Part shown: positions 88-6,199 of the stretch, piece by piece | How positions within the stretch are numbered: position 1 is the first letter of the stretch | Layout: each line of letters begins with the position of its first letter | IMG/VR virus record: IMGVR_UViG_2681813316_000020 | Direction: 5' to 3' (one strand) | Length of the DNA stretch: 6,199 bases | Source of the DNA: a virus | Lineage: Duplodnaviria; Heunggongvirae; Uroviricota; Caudoviricetes | Position numbers and translations under genes: made by a program | The notes under the pieces: model-generated | The model's input: only the letters and a program-made list of their open reading frames with translations | Databases searched by the model: none | Told to the model about the DNA's origin: nothing

Positions 88-417
88 ATGCGTAAAGTTT
101 GTGCCGCCATTTTGTCCGCAGCCATTTGTCTGGCCGTATCCGGTGCGCCTGCATGGGCGTCTGAACATCAGTCCACGCTGAGCGCGGGGTATCTTCATGC
201 CCGGACGAACGTTCCCGGCAGTGATGATCTGAACGGGATTAACGTGAAATACCGTTATGAGTTTACGGACACACTGGGGCTGGTGACGTCATTCAGCTAT
301 GCAGGAGACAAGAATCGCCAGCTTACCCGTTACAGCGATACCCGCTGGCATGAAGATTCCGTGCGTAACCGCTGGTTCAGCGTGATGGCGGGGCCGTCTG
401 TGCGCGTGAATGAATAA
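88..417 (+). pseudogene. lom: Lom/Ail/OmpX-family outer-membrane protein, 3'-truncated remnant (109 codons)
   Basis: GAGAGG Shine-Dalgarno at 77-82, five nt before the ATG at 88. N-terminal signal peptide MRKVCAAILSAAICLAVSGAPAWA. Translation resembles phage lambda Lom (GINVKYRYE..., SVMAGP motifs) as I remember it, but stops at 109 aa where family members are about 170-206 aa, so the 8-strand barrel cannot be complete. Position before stf matches lambda gene order. Confidence 0.7.
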
Positions 418-485
418 AAGGAATTGTCCAGCTCAGTAGTGCAACCAACAGCGCATCTGAAACGCTTGCCGCGACACCGAAAGCA

Positions 486-1721
486 GTGAAAGCAGCTAAT
501 GATAATGCGAATGGTCGGGTACCTTCTGCCCGTAAGGTGAATGGTAAGGCGCTTTCAGCGGATATAACACTGACGCCGAAAGATATTGGTACGCTTAACT
601 CAACAACAATGTTATTCAGCGGTGGTGCTGGTTGGTTCAAATTAGCAACGGTAACCATGCCACAGGCGAGTTCTGTTGTTTCAATTACGTTGATTGGTGG
701 CGCGGGATTTAACGTGGGGTCACCTCAACAGGCAGGTATATCTGAACTTGTTTTGCGTGCAGGTAATGGTAATCCGAAGGGGATTACTGGTGCTTTATGG
801 CAGCGCACATCGACAGGGTTTACAAATTTTGCCTGGGTCAATACATCTGGTGATACTTACGATATTTACGTTGCAATCGGAAATTATGCGACTGGTGTAA
901 ATATTCAATGGGATTATACCAGTAATGCCAGCGTGACGATTCATACGTCACCAGCATATTCAGCTAATAAGCCGGAAGGGTTAACGGACGGTACAGTTTA
1001 TTCACTCTATACGCCATCAGAGCAGTTTTATCCGCCTGGCGCACCAATCCCGTGGCCATCAGATACCGTTCCGTCTGGCTATGCCCTGATGCAGGGGCAG
1101 ACTTTTGACAAATCTGCATACCCGAAACTTGCAGCCGCTTATCCGTCAGGCGTGATCCCTGATATGCGTGGCTGGACGATTAAGGGCAAACCCGCCAGTG
1201 GTCGTGCCGTATTGTCTCAGGAACAGGACGGCATTAAATCGCACACCCACAGCGCCAGCGCATCCAGTACGGATTTGGGGACGAAAAACACATCGTCGTT
1301 TGATTACGGAACCAAATCCACGAATAACACCGGGGCGCATACCCATAGTATTAGCGGGACTGCAAATAGTGCCGGTGCGCACCAACACAAGAGTTCCGGT
1401 GCATTTGGTGGCACGAACACGAGCATTTTCCCTAATGGTTATACCGCGATTTCAAATCTAAGCGCGGGGATTATGAGCACAACAAGCGGTAGTGGCCAGA
1501 CTCGTAATGCAGGGAAGACATCATCAGATGGTGCTCATACCCACTCGCTGTCCGGCACTGCTGCAAGCGCAGGCGCACATGCACATACTGTCGGTATTGG
1601 TGCTCATACGCACTCCGTTGCGATTGGTTCACATGGACACACCATCACCGTTAACGCTGCTGGTAACGCGGAAAACACCGTCAAAAACATCGCATTTAAC
1701 TATATTGTGAGGCTTGCATAA
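486..1721 (+). CDS. stf: Phage side tail fibre protein Stf, C-terminal portion (N-terminally truncated; reading frame open from 414 with no upstream start)
   Basis: Translation carries the conserved [21 protein letters not shown] motif just upstream of the GTG at 486 (in frame from 420). It also has the tail-collar segment [65 protein letters not shown], repeated HxH motifs, and the C-terminal end [22 protein letters not shown], all matching lambda Stf as I remember it. The only in-frame starts are GTG 486 and ATG 609, so this is a fragment of a normally much longer fibre gene. Confidence 0.85.
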
Positions 1722-2305
1722 TGGCATTCAGAATGAGTGAACAACCACAGACCATAAAAATTTATAATCTGTTGGCCGGAACTAATGAATTTATTGGTGA
1801 AGGTGACGCATATATTCCGCCTCATACAGGTCTGCCAGCAAACAGTACCGATATTGCACCGCCAGATATTCCGGCAGGCTTCGTGGCTGTTTTCAACAGT
1901 GATGAGGCATCGTGGCATCTTGTTGAAGACCATCGGGGTAAAACAGTTTATGACGTGGCATCAGGGGACGCGTTATTTATTTCTGAACTCGGCTCATTAC
2001 CGGAAAATGTTACCTGGTTATCCCCGGAAGGGGAGTTTCAGAAGTGGAACGGCACAGACTGGGTGAAGGATACGGAAGCAGAAAAACTGTTCCGGATCCG
2101 GGAGGCGGAAGAAACAAAAAACAGCCTGATGCAGGTAGCCAGTGAGCATATAGCGCCGCTTCAGGATGCTGTAGATCTGGAAATCGCAACGGAGGAAGAA
2201 ACCTCATTGCTGGAAGCCTGGAAAAAATATCGGGTGTTGCTGAACCGTGTTGATACATCAACTGCACCTGATATTGAGTGGCCTACGAACCCTGTCAGGG
2301 AGTAA
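1721..2305 (+). CDS. tfa: Tail fibre assembly protein (Tfa chaperone), apparently intact, 194 aa
   Basis: Translation [54 protein letters not shown]... is near-identical to lambda Tfa as I remember it. Its ATG overlaps the stf stop (TAATG at 1719-1723), the classic stf-tfa arrangement. Confidence 0.9.
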
Positions 2306-2319
2306 TCATTGGGATTATG

Positions 2320-2352
2320 CCGCAGCACGTCTTAAGCAAGAACGTGCTGCGG
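2320..2352. terminator. Strong hairpin between convergent tfa and methyltransferase genes; possible bidirectional terminator
   Basis: Seen in sequence: perfect 10-bp stem CCGCAGCACG (2320-2329) / CGTGCTGCGG (2343-2352) with a 13-nt loop. A T6 run follows on the plus strand only after an 8-nt gap (2363-2368), so the terminator role is inferred rather than canonical. Confidence 0.4.
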
Positions 2353-2359
2353 TTGGATG

Positions 2360-3028
2360 CTATTTTTTCCCTGAAGCGGAAAACATTACTACAGTACCTT
2401 GAACCTTGGTTTTAACATTCTCGAAATGCTCTGAGAGTATATGTGTTAAGCCTTCTTCGGAATCTTTTGTGTTTGAAAAGATGCCTTTCTGATTGTAAAT
2501 GCGCATCAGTTTTTGACCGAAGCTATTGTGCACAACTCCATCGCCAAGAATTGTGGCTCCGTATAGAGTTCCATCGTCAGTTAAGGCCTGCGCCGCATTG
2601 CGTATTACACAGCTTTTTGTAGATATATTTCCAGGCAGGCAGTGAAGAAGGTAAAACATGGAAATGGAATCAAATTGACCATGTAACGCCGCGGGATAAG
2701 GTTCAAAAACATCATGGCTAATTTTATGTTTAATTTTTGATTCCCCAGCCCTTGTAGATGCCGCGTTCAGGCTAGCTTCGTTCAAATCCATTAAAGATAT
2801 CAGACTACTCTCAGGTACGTGAGTAAGGTAAAACCCAGTTCCAACACCAATATCCAGATGGTTGTTACCTAAATGTTCCAGAAAGTGTGGAAGAAGGTGT
2901 TCCTTTGTAGGACATCCCCATGCAAGCCGATTTGATACTCCCAAAACCCACCAGTCATAAAGCTTTAGGGTAAGTGGTGTGTAAATTTTAGCCCCATCAT
3001 CTGTGTTTTTTTTCATTAATTTCACCAT
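2360..3028 (-). CDS. ybcY: Class I SAM-dependent methyltransferase (222 aa; possible true start at the second Met, 3014-3016)
   Basis: Translation contains the glycine-rich SAM-binding motif I LDIGVGTGF, an acidic post-I residue (LMDLNEA) and a motif II-like FDSISMFYLLHC. The gene symbol is assigned by synteny only (tfa - methyltransferase - tfaX - appY - ompT as in the E. coli K-12 DLP12 right arm), not by sequence recall. The first ATG has no obvious SD; the second Met is preceded by GGTGA. Confidence 0.75.
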   Translation of the reverse strand: MVKLMKKNTDDGAKIYTPLTLKLYDWWVLGVSNRLAWGCPTKEHLLPHFLEHLGNNHLDIGVGTGFYLTHVPESSLISLMDLNEASLNAASTRAGESKIKHKISHDVFEPYPAALHGQFDSISMFYLLHCLPGNISTKSCVIRNAAQALTDDGTLYGATILGDGVVHNSFGQKLMRIYNQKGIFSNTKDSEEGLTHILSEHFENVKTKVQGTVVMFSASGKK

Positions 3029-3084
3029 GTTATAGTTTTATTTGTGAATTAAATCAATTATGGCAATGAATTACAAGGGGTTAA

Positions 3085-3345
3085 ATGCTGCCGCAGCATA
3101 GCGATATTGAAATAGCCTGGTATGCTTCAATACAGCAGGAGCCGAATAGCTGGAAGACCGTCACCACACAGTTCTACATCCAGGAATTCAGTGAGTATAT
3201 TGCGCCACTGCAGGATGCTGTAGATCTGGAAATCGCAACGGAGGAAGAAAGATCGTTGCTGGAAGCCTGAAAAAAGTATCGGGTGCTGCTAAACCGTGTG
3301 GACACTTCCGTAGCACCAGATATCGAGTGGCTTATTCAACCATAA
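3085..3345 (+). pseudogene. tfaX: Tail fibre assembly protein C-terminal remnant interrupted by an in-frame TGA (3268-3270)
   Basis: Bases 3190-3345 are a direct repeat of the tfa 3' end (2141-2305), with a run of about 40 identical nt at 3211-3250 versus 2161-2200. The translation ...[40 protein letters not shown]... continues in the same frame after the TGA; the corresponding tfa codon is TGG (Trp, 2219-2221). The N-terminal 35 codons are unrelated to the tfa at 1721. Symbol by synteny with K-12. Confidence 0.7.
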
Positions 3346-3891
3346 TAAACAGTATGTATATCATAGGTTATTAATTGTGAGTTTTTTCGGTGTGTTATTT
3401 GTTTGTTTGATGTTATGCTTTTGCGCCCCAAAAGGTTGTTTAGATGTATTTTATCAATTGATTTTCAATATCGTTTAATAAAGAAAAATTAAGCAAGCTG
3501 GATGTTGGTTTTTTGTTAATTGAATGGTTCTAATAATGTTTTTTTTACTGTTGTTGAATGTGACTTGATAAGAAATGCAAGTAAAAATGATACTCTTTTT
3601 ATTTTAAATTCAAACGGTTGACATATATATAGCAAGAGGTTTCAGGTGCGTTGTAGTGAGTTTATGTTAATAAAAAGTATAGTAAGCGTTGAAAAATGTA
3701 ACTTTGAAATACGTTAGAATAAAAAACAATATACATATAATAATTTAATCTTAAATGAAATTTATTAAAATTTGCAAACTATAGTTTTGTGTATAAAAAT
3801 ATAAATGCACATCATCCTGATTATGATTGTGTATTTAATTGGTTGTTATTTGACTGCTATCAACTTGTTTTAATTTTATGATAGGTGCAAG
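3346..3891 (+). promoter_or_regulatory. Very AT-rich upstream/leader region of appY (promoter and probable nucleoid-protein silencing region)
   Basis: About 550 bp non-coding and strongly AT-rich by eye (roughly a quarter to a third GC), with many A/T tracts. It contains a consensus -35 hexamer TTGACA (3618-3623) but no well-spaced -10 that I can pair with it. appY is known to be H-NS repressed and ArcA/RpoS controlled (established knowledge); exact sites are not resolved here. Confidence 0.4.
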
Positions 3892-4641
3892 ATGGATTAT
3901 GTTTGCTCCGTAGTTTTCATCTGTCAATCATTTGATTTAATTATAAACAGGAGAGTTATCTCGTTCAAAAAAAATTCATTGTTTATTGTAAGCGACAAAA
4001 TTAGAAGGGAGTTACCAGTATGCCCCTCTAAACTAAGAATTGTTGATATAGATAAGAAAACATGTTTATCCTTTTTTATCGACGTGAATAATGAGCTGCC
4101 TGGCAAATTTACTCTTGATAAGAATGGCTATATTGCTGAAGAGGAACCTCCATTATCGCTTGTTTTTTCTCTGTTTGAAGGGATTAAAATAGCAGACTCA
4201 TACTCCCTTTGGTTAAAAGAAAGACTATGTATATCCTTACTTGCCATGTTCAAAAAACGCGAAAGTGTAAATTCTTTTATACTAACAAATATAAATACAT
4301 TCACCTGTAAAATTACTGGAATAATCAGTTTTAATATTGAGCGACAATGGCATTTAAAAGATATTGCGGAATTGATTTATACGAGTGAAAGTTTAATAAA
4401 AAAAAGATTAAGGGATGAAGGAACGTCATTTACTGAAATATTGAGAGATACTAGGATGAGGTATGCAAAAAAACTCATAACTTCAAACTCTTATTCTATC
4501 AATGTCGTAGCCCAGAAATGTGGCTATAACAGTACTTCATATTTCATATGTGCATTTAAAGATTATTATGGTGTCACGCCATCTCATTATTTTGAGAAAA
4601 TAATCGGCGTCACAGATGGAATAAACAAAACAATTGACTGA
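3892..4641 (+). CDS. appY: AraC/XylS-family transcriptional activator AppY (249 aa)
   Basis: Translation [27 protein letters not shown]... matches E. coli AppY as I remember it, with a C-terminal AraC-type HTH region (..[29 protein letters not shown]..). Extremely AT-rich coding sequence. Synteny with ompT as in E. coli K-12. Confidence 0.9.
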
Positions 4642-4845
4642 TAATGTTTATTACAAGTTGTCTACATGTTAATTATAATATTATACAGCGTTTTTTCTGA
4701 TGTGATATTCTGGAACCATTAATTTGTAATTGGGTTGCTGTCGCCTATTTTATACATACTATAATTGATGGTTTTCTATGTGATTTAGTTAATAACCTTC
4801 TGGGTTTATTTTAAGGGTTAATTGTTACATTGAAATGGCTAGTTA

Positions 4846-4874
4846 TTCCCCGGGGCGATTTTCACCTCGGGGAA
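4846..4874. terminator. Hairpin in the convergent appY/ompT intergenic region; putative shared terminator
   Basis: Seen in sequence: TTCCCCG (4846-4852) pairs with CGGGGAA (4868-4874) around a 15-nt loop and is followed by an A/T-rich stretch. It lies 17 nt downstream of the ompT stop on the minus strand and about 200 nt downstream of the appY stop. Confidence 0.4.
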
Positions 4875-4890
4875 ATTTTAGTTGGCGTTC

Positions 4891-5844
4891 TTAAAATGTG
4901 TACTTAAGACCAGCAGTAGTGATGAAGTTATAGTTTTCTATACCTGCTCCATTTTTGCTGTAGTCTGAAGTGTTATTATTGTGATCATAAAGTGAAGTAT
5001 TACCTTTTTTATTCGTAACCCGATTCCATGCGCCTTCAACATAAACTTTTGCGTTAGGTGTGACGTAATAACCTGCATTGACTGCAACAGAATAGTAATT
5101 TTGGTCTTTGACCTTACTGCGATAAGTGATTCTTTTTCCCGGGTCATAGTGTTCATCGTTATCAGATGATTCCACCCAGCCGCTGTATTTAAATGTGCCA
5201 CCGAGTTCAAAATCTTCATAACGATAACTTCCAGTCAAGCCAATGTAGGGCATTTTAAAACGTTGTTTGTAGCCGATTGCCCTTTCTCCATTCGGGAAGG
5301 AGCCGATATCATCTCTGAATCCCTCCTCAGAACTGTAGATATAGGAACCACCTCTGGCTGTAAAGCTATAACGGCTTTCCTGATATCCGGCCATGAGTCC
5401 CAGGCGGTAATTGGGTTCGTTGAGGAGCCAGCCTTTGATATTCAGATCAAATTCGTTGGCATAATTGAGTTGTGTATCAGGGTGTCTACTTTCATCCGTC
5501 CAGGTTCCGGGGTTACTGGAATCCATCCAGTCCTGATCGACCATATTGCCACCTCGGCTGCCGAGAGTTGTCCAGCCAGCAGCCCCGATAGATATCTGGG
5601 GCATCAAATCCCAATTAATTGCACCTTTAATAATTGCAGCGTTATTGAATTTCCAGTCGAGTTGACTGACTTTTCGGCCTCCTTCTTCGGCTAGATAAAC
5701 ACGCTCTTTTGTTTTTCCGCTCAGAGTTCCAAGACTAATGTCCGCATTTATGTTGTCAGGAGTAAACGATAAAGTCTCGGTAGAAGCAAAAGAGCTGATC
5801 GCAATAGGGGTTGTCAGGAATATTCCCAGAAGTTTCGCCCGCAT
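4891..5844 (-). CDS. ompT: Outer-membrane protease OmpT (omptin, protease VII), 317 aa with signal peptide
   Basis: Translation MRAKLLGI.LTTPIAISSFASTETLSFTPDNINADISLGTLSGKTKERVYLAEEGGRKVSQLDWKF...AGLKYTF matches E. coli OmpT as I remember it. GGAG Shine-Dalgarno 7 nt upstream of the ATG (minus strand). Confidence 0.95.
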   Translation of the reverse strand: MRAKLLGIFLTTPIAISSFASTETLSFTPDNINADISLGTLSGKTKERVYLAEEGGRKVSQLDWKFNNAAIIKGAINWDLMPQISIGAAGWTTLGSRGGNMVDQDWMDSSNPGTWTDESRHPDTQLNYANEFDLNIKGWLLNEPNYRLGLMAGYQESRYSFTARGGSYIYSSEEGFRDDIGSFPNGERAIGYKQRFKMPYIGLTGSYRYEDFELGGTFKYSGWVESSDNDEHYDPGKRITYRSKVKDQNYYSVAVNAGYYVTPNAKVYVEGAWNRVTNKKGNTSLYDHNNNTSDYSKNGAGIENYNFITTAGLKYTF

Positions 5845-6106
5845 AAAAGTTCTCCATTCAATCGTTTTAATGATTGAATATGTATTTTTTATATCTAACT
5901 TAATGAGTCAATTACATATTGCTCCACTGTTTATATTTTGTTTAGTATTGAATGATTATCACAATGCGCTATCTGTTTTTGGTTTAATTATCTGTTATTG
6001 TTTCATATTGCGGTTTTACTGTGTGGTTTTTTTATGCTTTTGTGGTGCTTTTATCTATTTGAGTGCCATGCCTTTAGAGGCATATAAGCGAAAATAGCAT
6101 GAGGTT
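5845..6106 (-). promoter_or_regulatory. ompT 5' leader/promoter region, AT-rich, bounded upstream by the IS3 insertion
   Basis: Non-coding AT-rich region immediately upstream of the ompT start (minus strand). Promoter elements are not resolved by eye; the region ends at the IS3 terminus at 6107. Confidence 0.4.
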
Positions 6107-6199
6107 TGATCCTACCCACGTAATATGGACACAGGCCTAAGCGAGGTTCTGGTTTTCAAATTGTTCCGGACTGAGGCCGCCACACCAACTGTGCCGCCG
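6107..6199 (-). mobile_element. IS3 insertion sequence, right-end inverted repeat and adjacent interior (partial; element continues beyond the window)
   Basis: 6107 onward reads TGATCCTACCCACGTAATATGGACACAGGCCTAAGCGAGG..., which matches the reverse complement of the IS3 right terminus as I remember it (IS3-family TGATC... end). The minus-strand translation downstream is the IS3 transposase C-terminus. Confidence 0.8.
6137..6199 (-). CDS. insF: IS3 transposase OrfB (InsF) C-terminal end, partial (5' part outside the window)
   Basis: Minus-strand translation from the window edge reads ...RRHSWCGGLSPEQFENQNLA then stop (TAG = plus-strand CTA at 6137-6139). This matches the C-terminus of IS3 OrfB as I remember it. 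Confidence 0.75.
   Translation of the reverse strand, partial: RRHSWCGGLSPEQFENQNLA

Follow-up and report, generated by a model that had tools for sequence, protein, structure and literature searches.

An intact ybcY-type methyltransferase gene in the cargo block of a DLP12-type prophage of Escherichia coli

The DNA under study is a 6,199-nucleotide stretch of a Caudoviricetes record (IMG/VR IMGVR_UViG_2681813316_000020), referred to here at its full length as the window. On its minus strand, next to a tail fibre assembly gene, it carries an open reading frame (ORF) for a small S-adenosylmethionine (SAM)-dependent methyltransferase. The locus raises the question of what such an enzyme does there: which gene it is, what it methylates and why the phage keeps it. 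The window covers the right end of an E. coli lambdoid prophage of the DLP12 type, and sequence comparison identifies the ORF as ybcY of this prophage, present here as an intact allele. ybcY is a known gene and ordinary prophage cargo, already catalogued as b0562, PHROG 2132 and RefSeq WP_000239881.1; the description in the initial annotation of this DNA corresponds to what annotation pipelines already state. We consider it probable that YbcY methylates a small molecule or lipid without needing a partner and that the phage carries it for lysogenic conversion. It is a reasonable target for substrate discovery rather than a surprising sequence feature, and its interest is modest.

The YbcY protein and its start codon

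The mechanically called ORF occupies positions 2360-3028 of the minus strand, is intact, encodes 222 amino acids and includes motif I (HLDIGVGTGFYL). Translation probably begins at the second ATG, at 3016, which would give a product of 218 amino acids. In the alignment, homologues begin at the position equivalent to Met5, and PHROG 2132 matches ORF residues 5-222 over profile positions 1-218 of 218 (E = 7.9e-157). A Shine-Dalgarno-like GGTGA (3026-3022) lies 5 nt upstream of this ATG, and the RefSeq annotation in strain CFT073 gives the 657-bp form of the gene. The lesion of the K-12 allele, a 2-bp deletion (window 3013-3014), also falls within this codon. Taken together, these observations make the 218-residue product the most likely one.

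The ORF passed the Pfam gathering thresholds of Methyltransf_12 (37.6 bits, cutoff 30), Methyltransf_23, Methyltransf_25 and Methyltransf_11. An AlphaFold2 model built from a 36-sequence alignment (predicted local distance difference test 90.7, predicted template modelling score 0.87) showed a single compact domain with two N-terminal helices, seven strands (56-60, 76-81, 99-104, 119-125, 149-160, 202-210 and 213-221) and the C-terminal hairpin typical of class I. The model places the protein among class I (Rossmann-fold) SAM-dependent methyltransferases. The initial annotation had called a small class I enzyme from the motif LDIGVGTGF; the motif is present, and the profile and structure searches that it had proposed as a check returned the same fold.

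Motif I, HLDIGVGTGFY, spans residues 57-67. Among 36 proteobacterial members of the family (56-90% identical to the window protein), 56 alignment columns were invariant. They include D59, G61, G63, T64 and G65 of motif I, D81, which closes strand 2 (76-81), and H105; D106 and D120 are kept in at least 90% of members. The SAM-binding motifs D59-x-G61-x-G63-T-G65, D81 at the end of strand 2, H105-D106 and D120-S121 are intact in the window protein. Outside the SAM site, invariant residues occur in the N-terminal helices (Y24-D25-W26-W27, N33, W37 and C39), after strand 4 (H129-C130) and further on (N168 and Y178-N179-x-K181-G-I-F-x-N186-x-x-D189). The family-specific signatures YDWWV, HCLPG and YNxKGIFxNxxD are all present.

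In E. coli K-12 the gene (b0562, in DLP12) lies in the same locus, in the order tfa', ybcY, tfaX, appY, ompT, with 99.3% DNA identity, and window positions 1867-6113 are 99.0% identical to strain MG1655, whose annotation places the ORF between tfaD' and tfaX' and describes it as a class I SAM-dependent methyltransferase with a frameshift. The K-12 allele differs from the intact window allele by the start-codon deletion and by an F-to-S change (window 2655) in the conserved DSxSxFYLLHC segment. Judged from these lesions, the K-12 laboratory strain is a natural null for ybcY. The dead allele of K-12 may explain why ybcY was never studied. Strain E2865, in turn, carries an ORF identical to that of the window, which corresponds to the intact protein WP_000239881.1.

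Substrate class and mode of action

More than 2000 homologues of the window methyltransferase were found, forming 429 clusters at 50% identity with E < 1e-30. The family ranges over gamma- and beta-proteobacteria, fungi and plasmids. Sequence comparison found no close relative among solved structures. When the family profile was compared with the PDB, the best matches were juvenile hormone acid O-methyltransferase (JHAMT, 4e-5), UbiG (1e-3), ToxA/XrdM (0.013), PmtA (0.047) and phosphoethanolamine N-methyltransferase (PEAMT, 0.048). Every profile match below E 0.1 was a small-molecule or lipid enzyme. Foldseek ranked R. thermophilum PmtA, JHAMT, SgvM, PfPMT and the C-methyltransferase domains of CurJ and of citrinin biosynthesis at the top, and the first 50 matches were nearly all small-molecule, lipid or polyketide methyltransferases. 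NCBIfam gave sub-threshold matches only (CpaM and RquA, 17 bits each, with cutoffs of 175-180) and no equivalog. A small-molecule or lipid substrate is consequently the best-supported class.

JHAMT (7ec0/7ebs) and UbiG (4kdr/5dpm) are both stand-alone O-methyltransferases that act on lipophilic small molecules, and the match extends through motifs I-IV, including the F-Y-x-L-H segment after strand 4. However, identity is ~21% over ~100 residues, and the YDWWV helix and the YNxKGIFxN loop of YbcY have no aligned counterpart in either enzyme. By sequence, the likeness is one of fold and class, not of shared family membership. Fungal stand-alone or polyketide synthase-adjacent methyltransferases, in contrast, belong to the same family, with 36-43% identity over the full length. 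They carry the same invariant residues, and most of those outside the SAM site survive at this distance, which argues for one specific, conserved substrate.

The family member of Penicillium steckii adjoins a highly reducing polyketide synthase gene. A further lead came from a Trichoderma protein, 37% identical and automatically named 'vrtF'. It was set aside: the gene sits among housekeeping genes and not in a cluster, so the name is unsupported. For VrtF itself the only description is that of O-methyltransferase in the viridicatumtoxin cluster (PMC4294208). Considered as a possible fungal polyketide O-methyltransferase of the VrtF/AdaD type, the phage gene stands without biosynthetic neighbours.

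An alternative is that YbcY modifies a macromolecule, such as tRNA, rRNA or a host or phage protein. A few tRNA enzymes do occur among the profile and fold neighbours, but rRNA methyltransferases appear only at E > 1, and the modelled chain of 218 residues contains no RNA-binding or other extra domain. The family is also patchy, accessory and often borne on plasmids or phages, unlike core RNA-modification enzymes. We regard modification of a macromolecule as unlikely.

An orphan DNA methyltransferase serving anti-restriction or epigenetic control was weighed as well. Such orphans are common in phages, and PADLOC returned a weak match to mad2 (E 0.0033, 14 bits). Yet the 222-residue translation contains no (D/N/S)PP(Y/F) or PC/ENV motif and not a single PP dipeptide, and no Pfam match to N6_Mtase, N6_N4_Mtase, MethyltransfD12 or DNA_methylase was obtained. 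The predicted 218-residue fold contains no target-recognition domain, the close relatives are fungal and chromosomal stand-alone genes, and no DNA methyltransferase was among the listed neighbours of the PDB profile search or Foldseek. With no DNA-methyltransferase motif, no Pfam match of that kind and no target-recognition domain to set beside a 14-bit PADLOC match, a role in DNA methylation is extremely improbable and can be excluded for practical purposes. This agrees with the initial annotation, which had judged the protein closer to small-molecule, RNA or protein methyltransferases than to those acting on DNA. A defence or restriction-modification system was likewise rejected as a candidate: mad2 was the only PADLOC match, and the gene lies between tfa and the tfa remnant tfaX'.

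The absence of a restriction endonuclease, specificity subunit or other partner from the window, as first reported, extends to the wider family. Neighbourhoods were compared in 80 genomes, comprising Enterobacterales, Pasteurellaceae, Pseudomonas, the Xanthomonas and Dyella groups and Oxalobacteraceae. No neighbour gene was conserved across them beyond genus level, and we conclude from this that the enzyme needs no partner. In Salmonella and Erwinia the family gene stands alone on the chromosome. The family gene of Citrobacter and Enterobacter adjoins dcp and ydfG, and in Pseudomonas it is syntenic with crotonase-like, CorA-like and GATase genes, both arrangements being lineage-specific. Fusion members of the family (P0126, P0133, P0214 and others) showed no recognisable additional Pfam domain, except for one uninformative RCC1 fusion in a lichen fungus.

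In six Proteus genomes (L054, L055, L068 and L071-L073) the methyltransferase gene stands back-to-back with an ibrA/ibrB-like pair encoding a PAPS-reductase-like protein of 411 amino acids and a ParB-like protein of 213 amino acids. The same pair lies ~4 kb from the methyltransferase gene in Klebsiella pneumoniae ATCC 13883 (L017). ibrB and ibrA are listed among the plasmid genes associated with hypervirulent K. pneumoniae (hvKp) (PMC5126061, PMC9846069).

On the reading preferred here, that of a small-molecule or lipid methyltransferase, YbcY would work without a partner, methylating an O or N atom of a low-molecular-weight substrate that is probably lipophilic or aromatic. The substrate pocket may be formed by the invariant N-terminal helices together with the 167-189 loop. 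His129, possibly with Tyr24, could serve as the general base that deprotonates the acceptor, as suggested by PfPMT and by the Tyr/His pair of R. thermophilum PmtA (Rt-PmtA).

Rt-PmtA also offers a narrower alternative, in which YbcY would be a phospholipid head-group N-methyltransferase converting phosphatidylethanolamine (PE) to monomethyl-PE in the lysogen membrane. Rt-PmtA (8ys9) was the best Foldseek match (E 3e-12, TM-score 0.61-0.65) and is of similar size (207 versus 218 amino acids). Its active site is of the Tyr10/Ser120/His147 type, and a Tyr/His pair has been described (PMC11446283). The catalytic Tyr lies in the N-terminal helix, and the invariant Y24, S121/S123 and H129 of YbcY could supply residues of the same kinds. 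The homologue on the Erwinia amylovora plasmid pEA29 moreover adjoins a choline transporter gene. Monomethyl-PE has been reported from Proteus, Yersinia and Xanthomonas, in all of which members of the family occur. However, YbcY lacks significant sequence similarity to PmtA: the profile match at E 0.047 amounts to 16 bits, and identity is 15-17%. We consider this specific activity very unlikely.

Cargo position, preservation and spread

Fifteen deposited phage records contain the same gene at 99-100% protein identity; among them are the lambda-like phages ev243 and 2G7b, as well as Kati, Turner and the PhiR series (PhiR29). In both ev243 and Kati, J is followed by lom, the tail fibre genes, tfa, the methyltransferase gene (reverse), tfaX', alpha/beta hydrolase or appY, ompT, the attachment site (att) and int. 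ybcY is the first gene of a non-essential cargo block that ends with ompT, and it lies outside the tail-fibre module. The initial annotation had placed it within a tail-fibre locus. This holds insofar as the gene is bracketed by tfa and a tfa remnant, but not in the sense of a position inside the tail-fibre module. Its further proposal, cargo of the lysogenic-conversion type, is in line with the presence of the gene in active phages, where it occupies a non-essential region flanked by the tail-fibre genes and att/int. The content of the cargo block varies between phages.

Several traits of a moron gene were seen. ybcY is on the minus strand, opposite to the late operon, while stf, tfa and tfaX are all on the plus strand, confirming the antisense arrangement first noted. 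Its GC content of 40.8% is below the 48-49% of its flanks, as had also been claimed: stf has 49.4% and tfa 47.7%, and GC at third codon positions is 35.6% in ybcY versus 43-45% in stf and tfa. A hairpin separates ybcY from the convergent tfa gene, and RpoD binding is on record for the K-12 spacer only.

The hairpin, at 2320-2352, folds with -23.9 kcal/mol on the minus strand (z -4.7) and -27.9 kcal/mol on the plus strand (z -4.2). Its T-run is on the plus strand only, and a terminator scan made no call at this position. The hairpin is likely the transcript end for tfa, and perhaps for both genes.

Upstream of ybcY, two candidate sigma-70 hexamer pairs were located: TTAACC (3084-3079)/CATAAT (3062-3057) with a spacing of 16, and TTGATT (3057-3052)/TATAAC (3034-3029) with a spacing of 17. 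In K-12, the spacer between ybcY and tfaX is bound by the RpoD holoenzyme and by H-NS; the promoter proposed there for ybcY is TTGATT-17-TATAAC (PMC3946193). This sequence is present in the window at 3057-3029. Promoter-like hexamers are not in excess over shuffled sequence in the upstream region (5 seen versus 6.4 expected), so we infer, rather than observe, use of the promoter in the window strain. ybcY would belong to the lysogenic-conversion ('moron') genes and opens the non-essential block that separates the tail-fibre genes from att/int. Its transcription probably runs counter to the late operon, starting at a sigma-70 promoter of its own in the short spacer that faces the tfa remnant, and H-NS probably represses it.

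ybcY DNA was detected in 3832 of 5426 complete E. coli genomes (~70%), with a median of one copy and a maximum of four; 3288 records were at least 99% identical. Preservation was assessed in 29 full-length matches, evenly spaced along the ranked E. coli genome matches. No indel was found in 24 of them, one had a 1-bp deletion, and four (K-12 derivatives and strain S21) had the K-12-type 2-bp deletion. In CFT073 and TUM14697 the prophage is reduced to argU, int', tfa', the methyltransferase gene and ompT, and the methyltransferase gene is intact. The window allele differs from these copies at 7-8 nucleotides, only two of the changes altering the protein, with a ratio of nonsynonymous to synonymous rates (dN/dS) of ~0.1 that reflects small numbers.

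These data bear on a different account, in which ybcY is an effectively silent hitch-hiker, kept by linkage to ompT and by its youth and without function in the lysogen. The phage copies are at least 99% identical and have had little time to decay, indels occur in five of the 29 sampled copies, and the K-12 promoter region is bound by H-NS. On the other side, the methyltransferase gene persists intact in prophage remnants stripped of nearly everything but ompT, five of the seven substitutions relative to CFT073 are synonymous, the catalytic motifs are all intact, and homologues were independently recruited to unrelated plasmids and islands. A silent passenger seems improbable.

Some points nevertheless weigh against a functional conversion enzyme with a small substrate. 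Generic names dominate the family, down to the 20 distant cluster representatives ('UbiE', 'type 11/12'), and no member has an experimentally based name or demonstrated activity. The catalytic roles given to His129 and Tyr24 are drawn by analogy only, and the dN/dS estimate is based on only 7-10 substitutions. The K-12 allele has no start codon and is dead, which also suits a hitch-hiker, as does the behaviour of a ybcY mutant, which was like its parent strain in the sole assay found (Hha toxicity).

The gene may move as a cassette. A 157-nt direct repeat of the tfa 3' end, D1, flanks it at 2129-2285 and 3178-3334 (84% identical), and interstrain breakpoints fall within this repeat (window 2186-2320). 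Because the repeat brackets the cassette and contains the breakpoints, movement between prophages by recombination in tfa homology fits these data. The tfaX remnant is directly upstream of the methyltransferase gene in every phage-allele locus checked in which that side is present. Among the matches listed, the allele was at least 99% identical in 80 of 80 IMG/VR loci; phage-borne ybcY is thus nearly clonal and probably derives from a single recent capture. A gammaproteobacterial chromosomal gene was probably captured once, would then have spread among E. coli lambdoid prophages via the flanking tfa homology, and seems to be kept intact as the prophage decays.

Outside phages, the nearest relatives are one in a Citrobacter island with dinI (90% identical) and one on a Salmonella plasmid (88% identical). 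Family homologues were present on 761 plasmid records, 603 of them from Klebsiella, and many Klebsiella plasmids show two matching places. On the pLVPK-type virulence plasmid NZ_CP132622.1 of K. pneumoniae (L174, 6995-7648), the 65%-identical protein WP_011251259.1 is encoded divergently from rmpA-rmpD-rmpC, near peg-344 and iroN. It has the same length as YbcY and all family-invariant residues, and it is likewise partner-less cargo, here beside virulence genes; it differs in being carried by a plasmid and not a phage, with rmpADC, peg-344 and iro as neighbours.

From its position next to rmpA, rather than from sequence comparison, WP_011251259.1 is presumed to be the pK2044 'putative SAM-dependent methyltransferase' BAH65943.1. 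The latter is a reported marker of liver-abscess and hypervirulent K. pneumoniae, with a frequency of 100% in isolates from liver abscesses and of 2-11% in those from sputum or urine (PMC5126061). Among genes associated with liver invasion, a class I SAM-dependent methyltransferase had an odds ratio of 15.5 (PMC9372168), and hypermucoviscosity is associated with a putative SAM-dependent methyltransferase listed next to rmpA (PMC9846069). The association of the methyltransferase with hvKp virulence is by linkage only.

Plasmid pEA29 of E. amylovora (L175, 6001-6660) carries a 53%-identical homologue between recombinase and choline transporter genes, and this species also has a chromosomal family copy that adjoins a carboxylesterase gene. 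A 32%-identical homologue from the Rhodococcus equi vap island/virulence plasmid was set aside for its degenerate motif I (HLEVGARSAWF).

Three settings, namely the E. coli ompT prophage, the hypervirulent Klebsiella plasmid with rmpADC, peg-344 and iro, and pEA29, suggest a broader possibility: that mobile elements in host-associated Enterobacterales recurrently carry YbcY-family enzymes as self-sufficient cargo for fitness or virulence, and that these enzymes methylate one specific, widely encountered compound. We hold this extension to be unlikely. If true, the target could be a toxin of the host or a competitor, neutralised by methylation, or an envelope lipid head group (PE to monomethyl-PE), and the chemistry or surface of the lysogen would be altered. 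What goes beyond annotation is that the family represents an uncharacterised enzyme of wide distribution, picked up again and again by mobile elements of host-associated bacteria. Discovery of its substrate would annotate thousands of genomes at once and would tell whether a metabolic or detoxifying activity travels with OmpT and RmpA on lambdoid phages and virulence plasmids.

Layout of the window and neighbouring elements

The features of the window are listed in Table 1.

Table 1. Annotated features of the 6,199-nucleotide window.
Feature	Position	Strand	Evidence
lom, truncated at codon 109	88-417	+	Pfam Ail_Lom 1-109 of 199
Defective tail-fibre module (lom'-stf' fusion)	88..1721	+	Pfam; blastn vs E2865
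stf, C-terminal 411 codons	486-1721	+	Pfam Collar/Phage_fiber
tfa, tail fibre assembly, 194 aa (amino acids), last late gene	1721..2305	+	Pfam Caudo_TAP, E 3.7e-45
Hairpin between convergent tfa and methyltransferase genes	2320..2352	.	Folding
ybcY-type class I SAM-dependent methyltransferase, coding sequence, 218 aa from probable start	2360..3016	-	Pfam; PHROG 2132; AlphaFold2; homologue starts; CFT073 657 bp
Putative promoter and ribosome-binding region of methyltransferase gene	3017..3084	-	Consensus scan; sequence
tfaX, truncated tfa-like remnant, 61 aa (101 aa in phage ev243)	3085..3270	+	Pfam Caudo_TAP; PHROG 2341
appY, AraC-family regulator, next cargo gene of block	3892..4641	+	Pfam HTH_18; K-12 annotation
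ompT, outer-membrane protease, last cargo gene before attachment site	4891..5844	-	Pfam Omptin, E 5e-130; NCBIfam match

Compared with strain E2865, ~2 kb is missing from the window (L001, 5066-7059; blastn), and the junction at 415/416 joins lom codon 109 to the middle of stf. Because this deletion fuses lom to the C-terminal part of stf, the prophage of the window is defective and cannot make a complete side tail fibre.

The segment between the methyltransferase gene and ompT is a swap site (window 3112-4844; L001, 10215-11699; L087). It holds appY in the window, K-12 and phage Kati, a gene for a 494-residue alpha/beta hydrolase in E2865 and phage ev243, and nothing in CFT073 and TUM14697. 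Near both borders of the variable appY segment lie the arms (3338-3367 and 4744-4773) of a 30-nt inverted repeat, 77% complementary, which may mark exchange points or may be a chance occurrence in AT-rich DNA. The spacer upstream of appY (3271-3891) has 27.7% GC and no ORF of at least 40 amino acids; it is a tract of the type bound by H-NS.

An ORF of 45 amino acids (2278-2415, plus strand) overlaps the end of tfa, the hairpin and the 3' end of the methyltransferase gene. It has no PHROG match, is named 'hypothetical protein' in E2865 and 'nucleocapsid protein' in K-12 (RefSeq), and looks like an annotation artefact. Two plus-strand stretches match IS009 (RF02111), an Rfam family typed 'Gene': the 3' coding part of tfa at 2064-2262, with 222.7 bits (gathering score 117), and the tfaX remnant at 3108-3311, with 108.9 bits. 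Since both matches fall on coding DNA of tfa and tfaX, this family may model a repeated tail-fibre-assembly coding segment and not a free-standing RNA.

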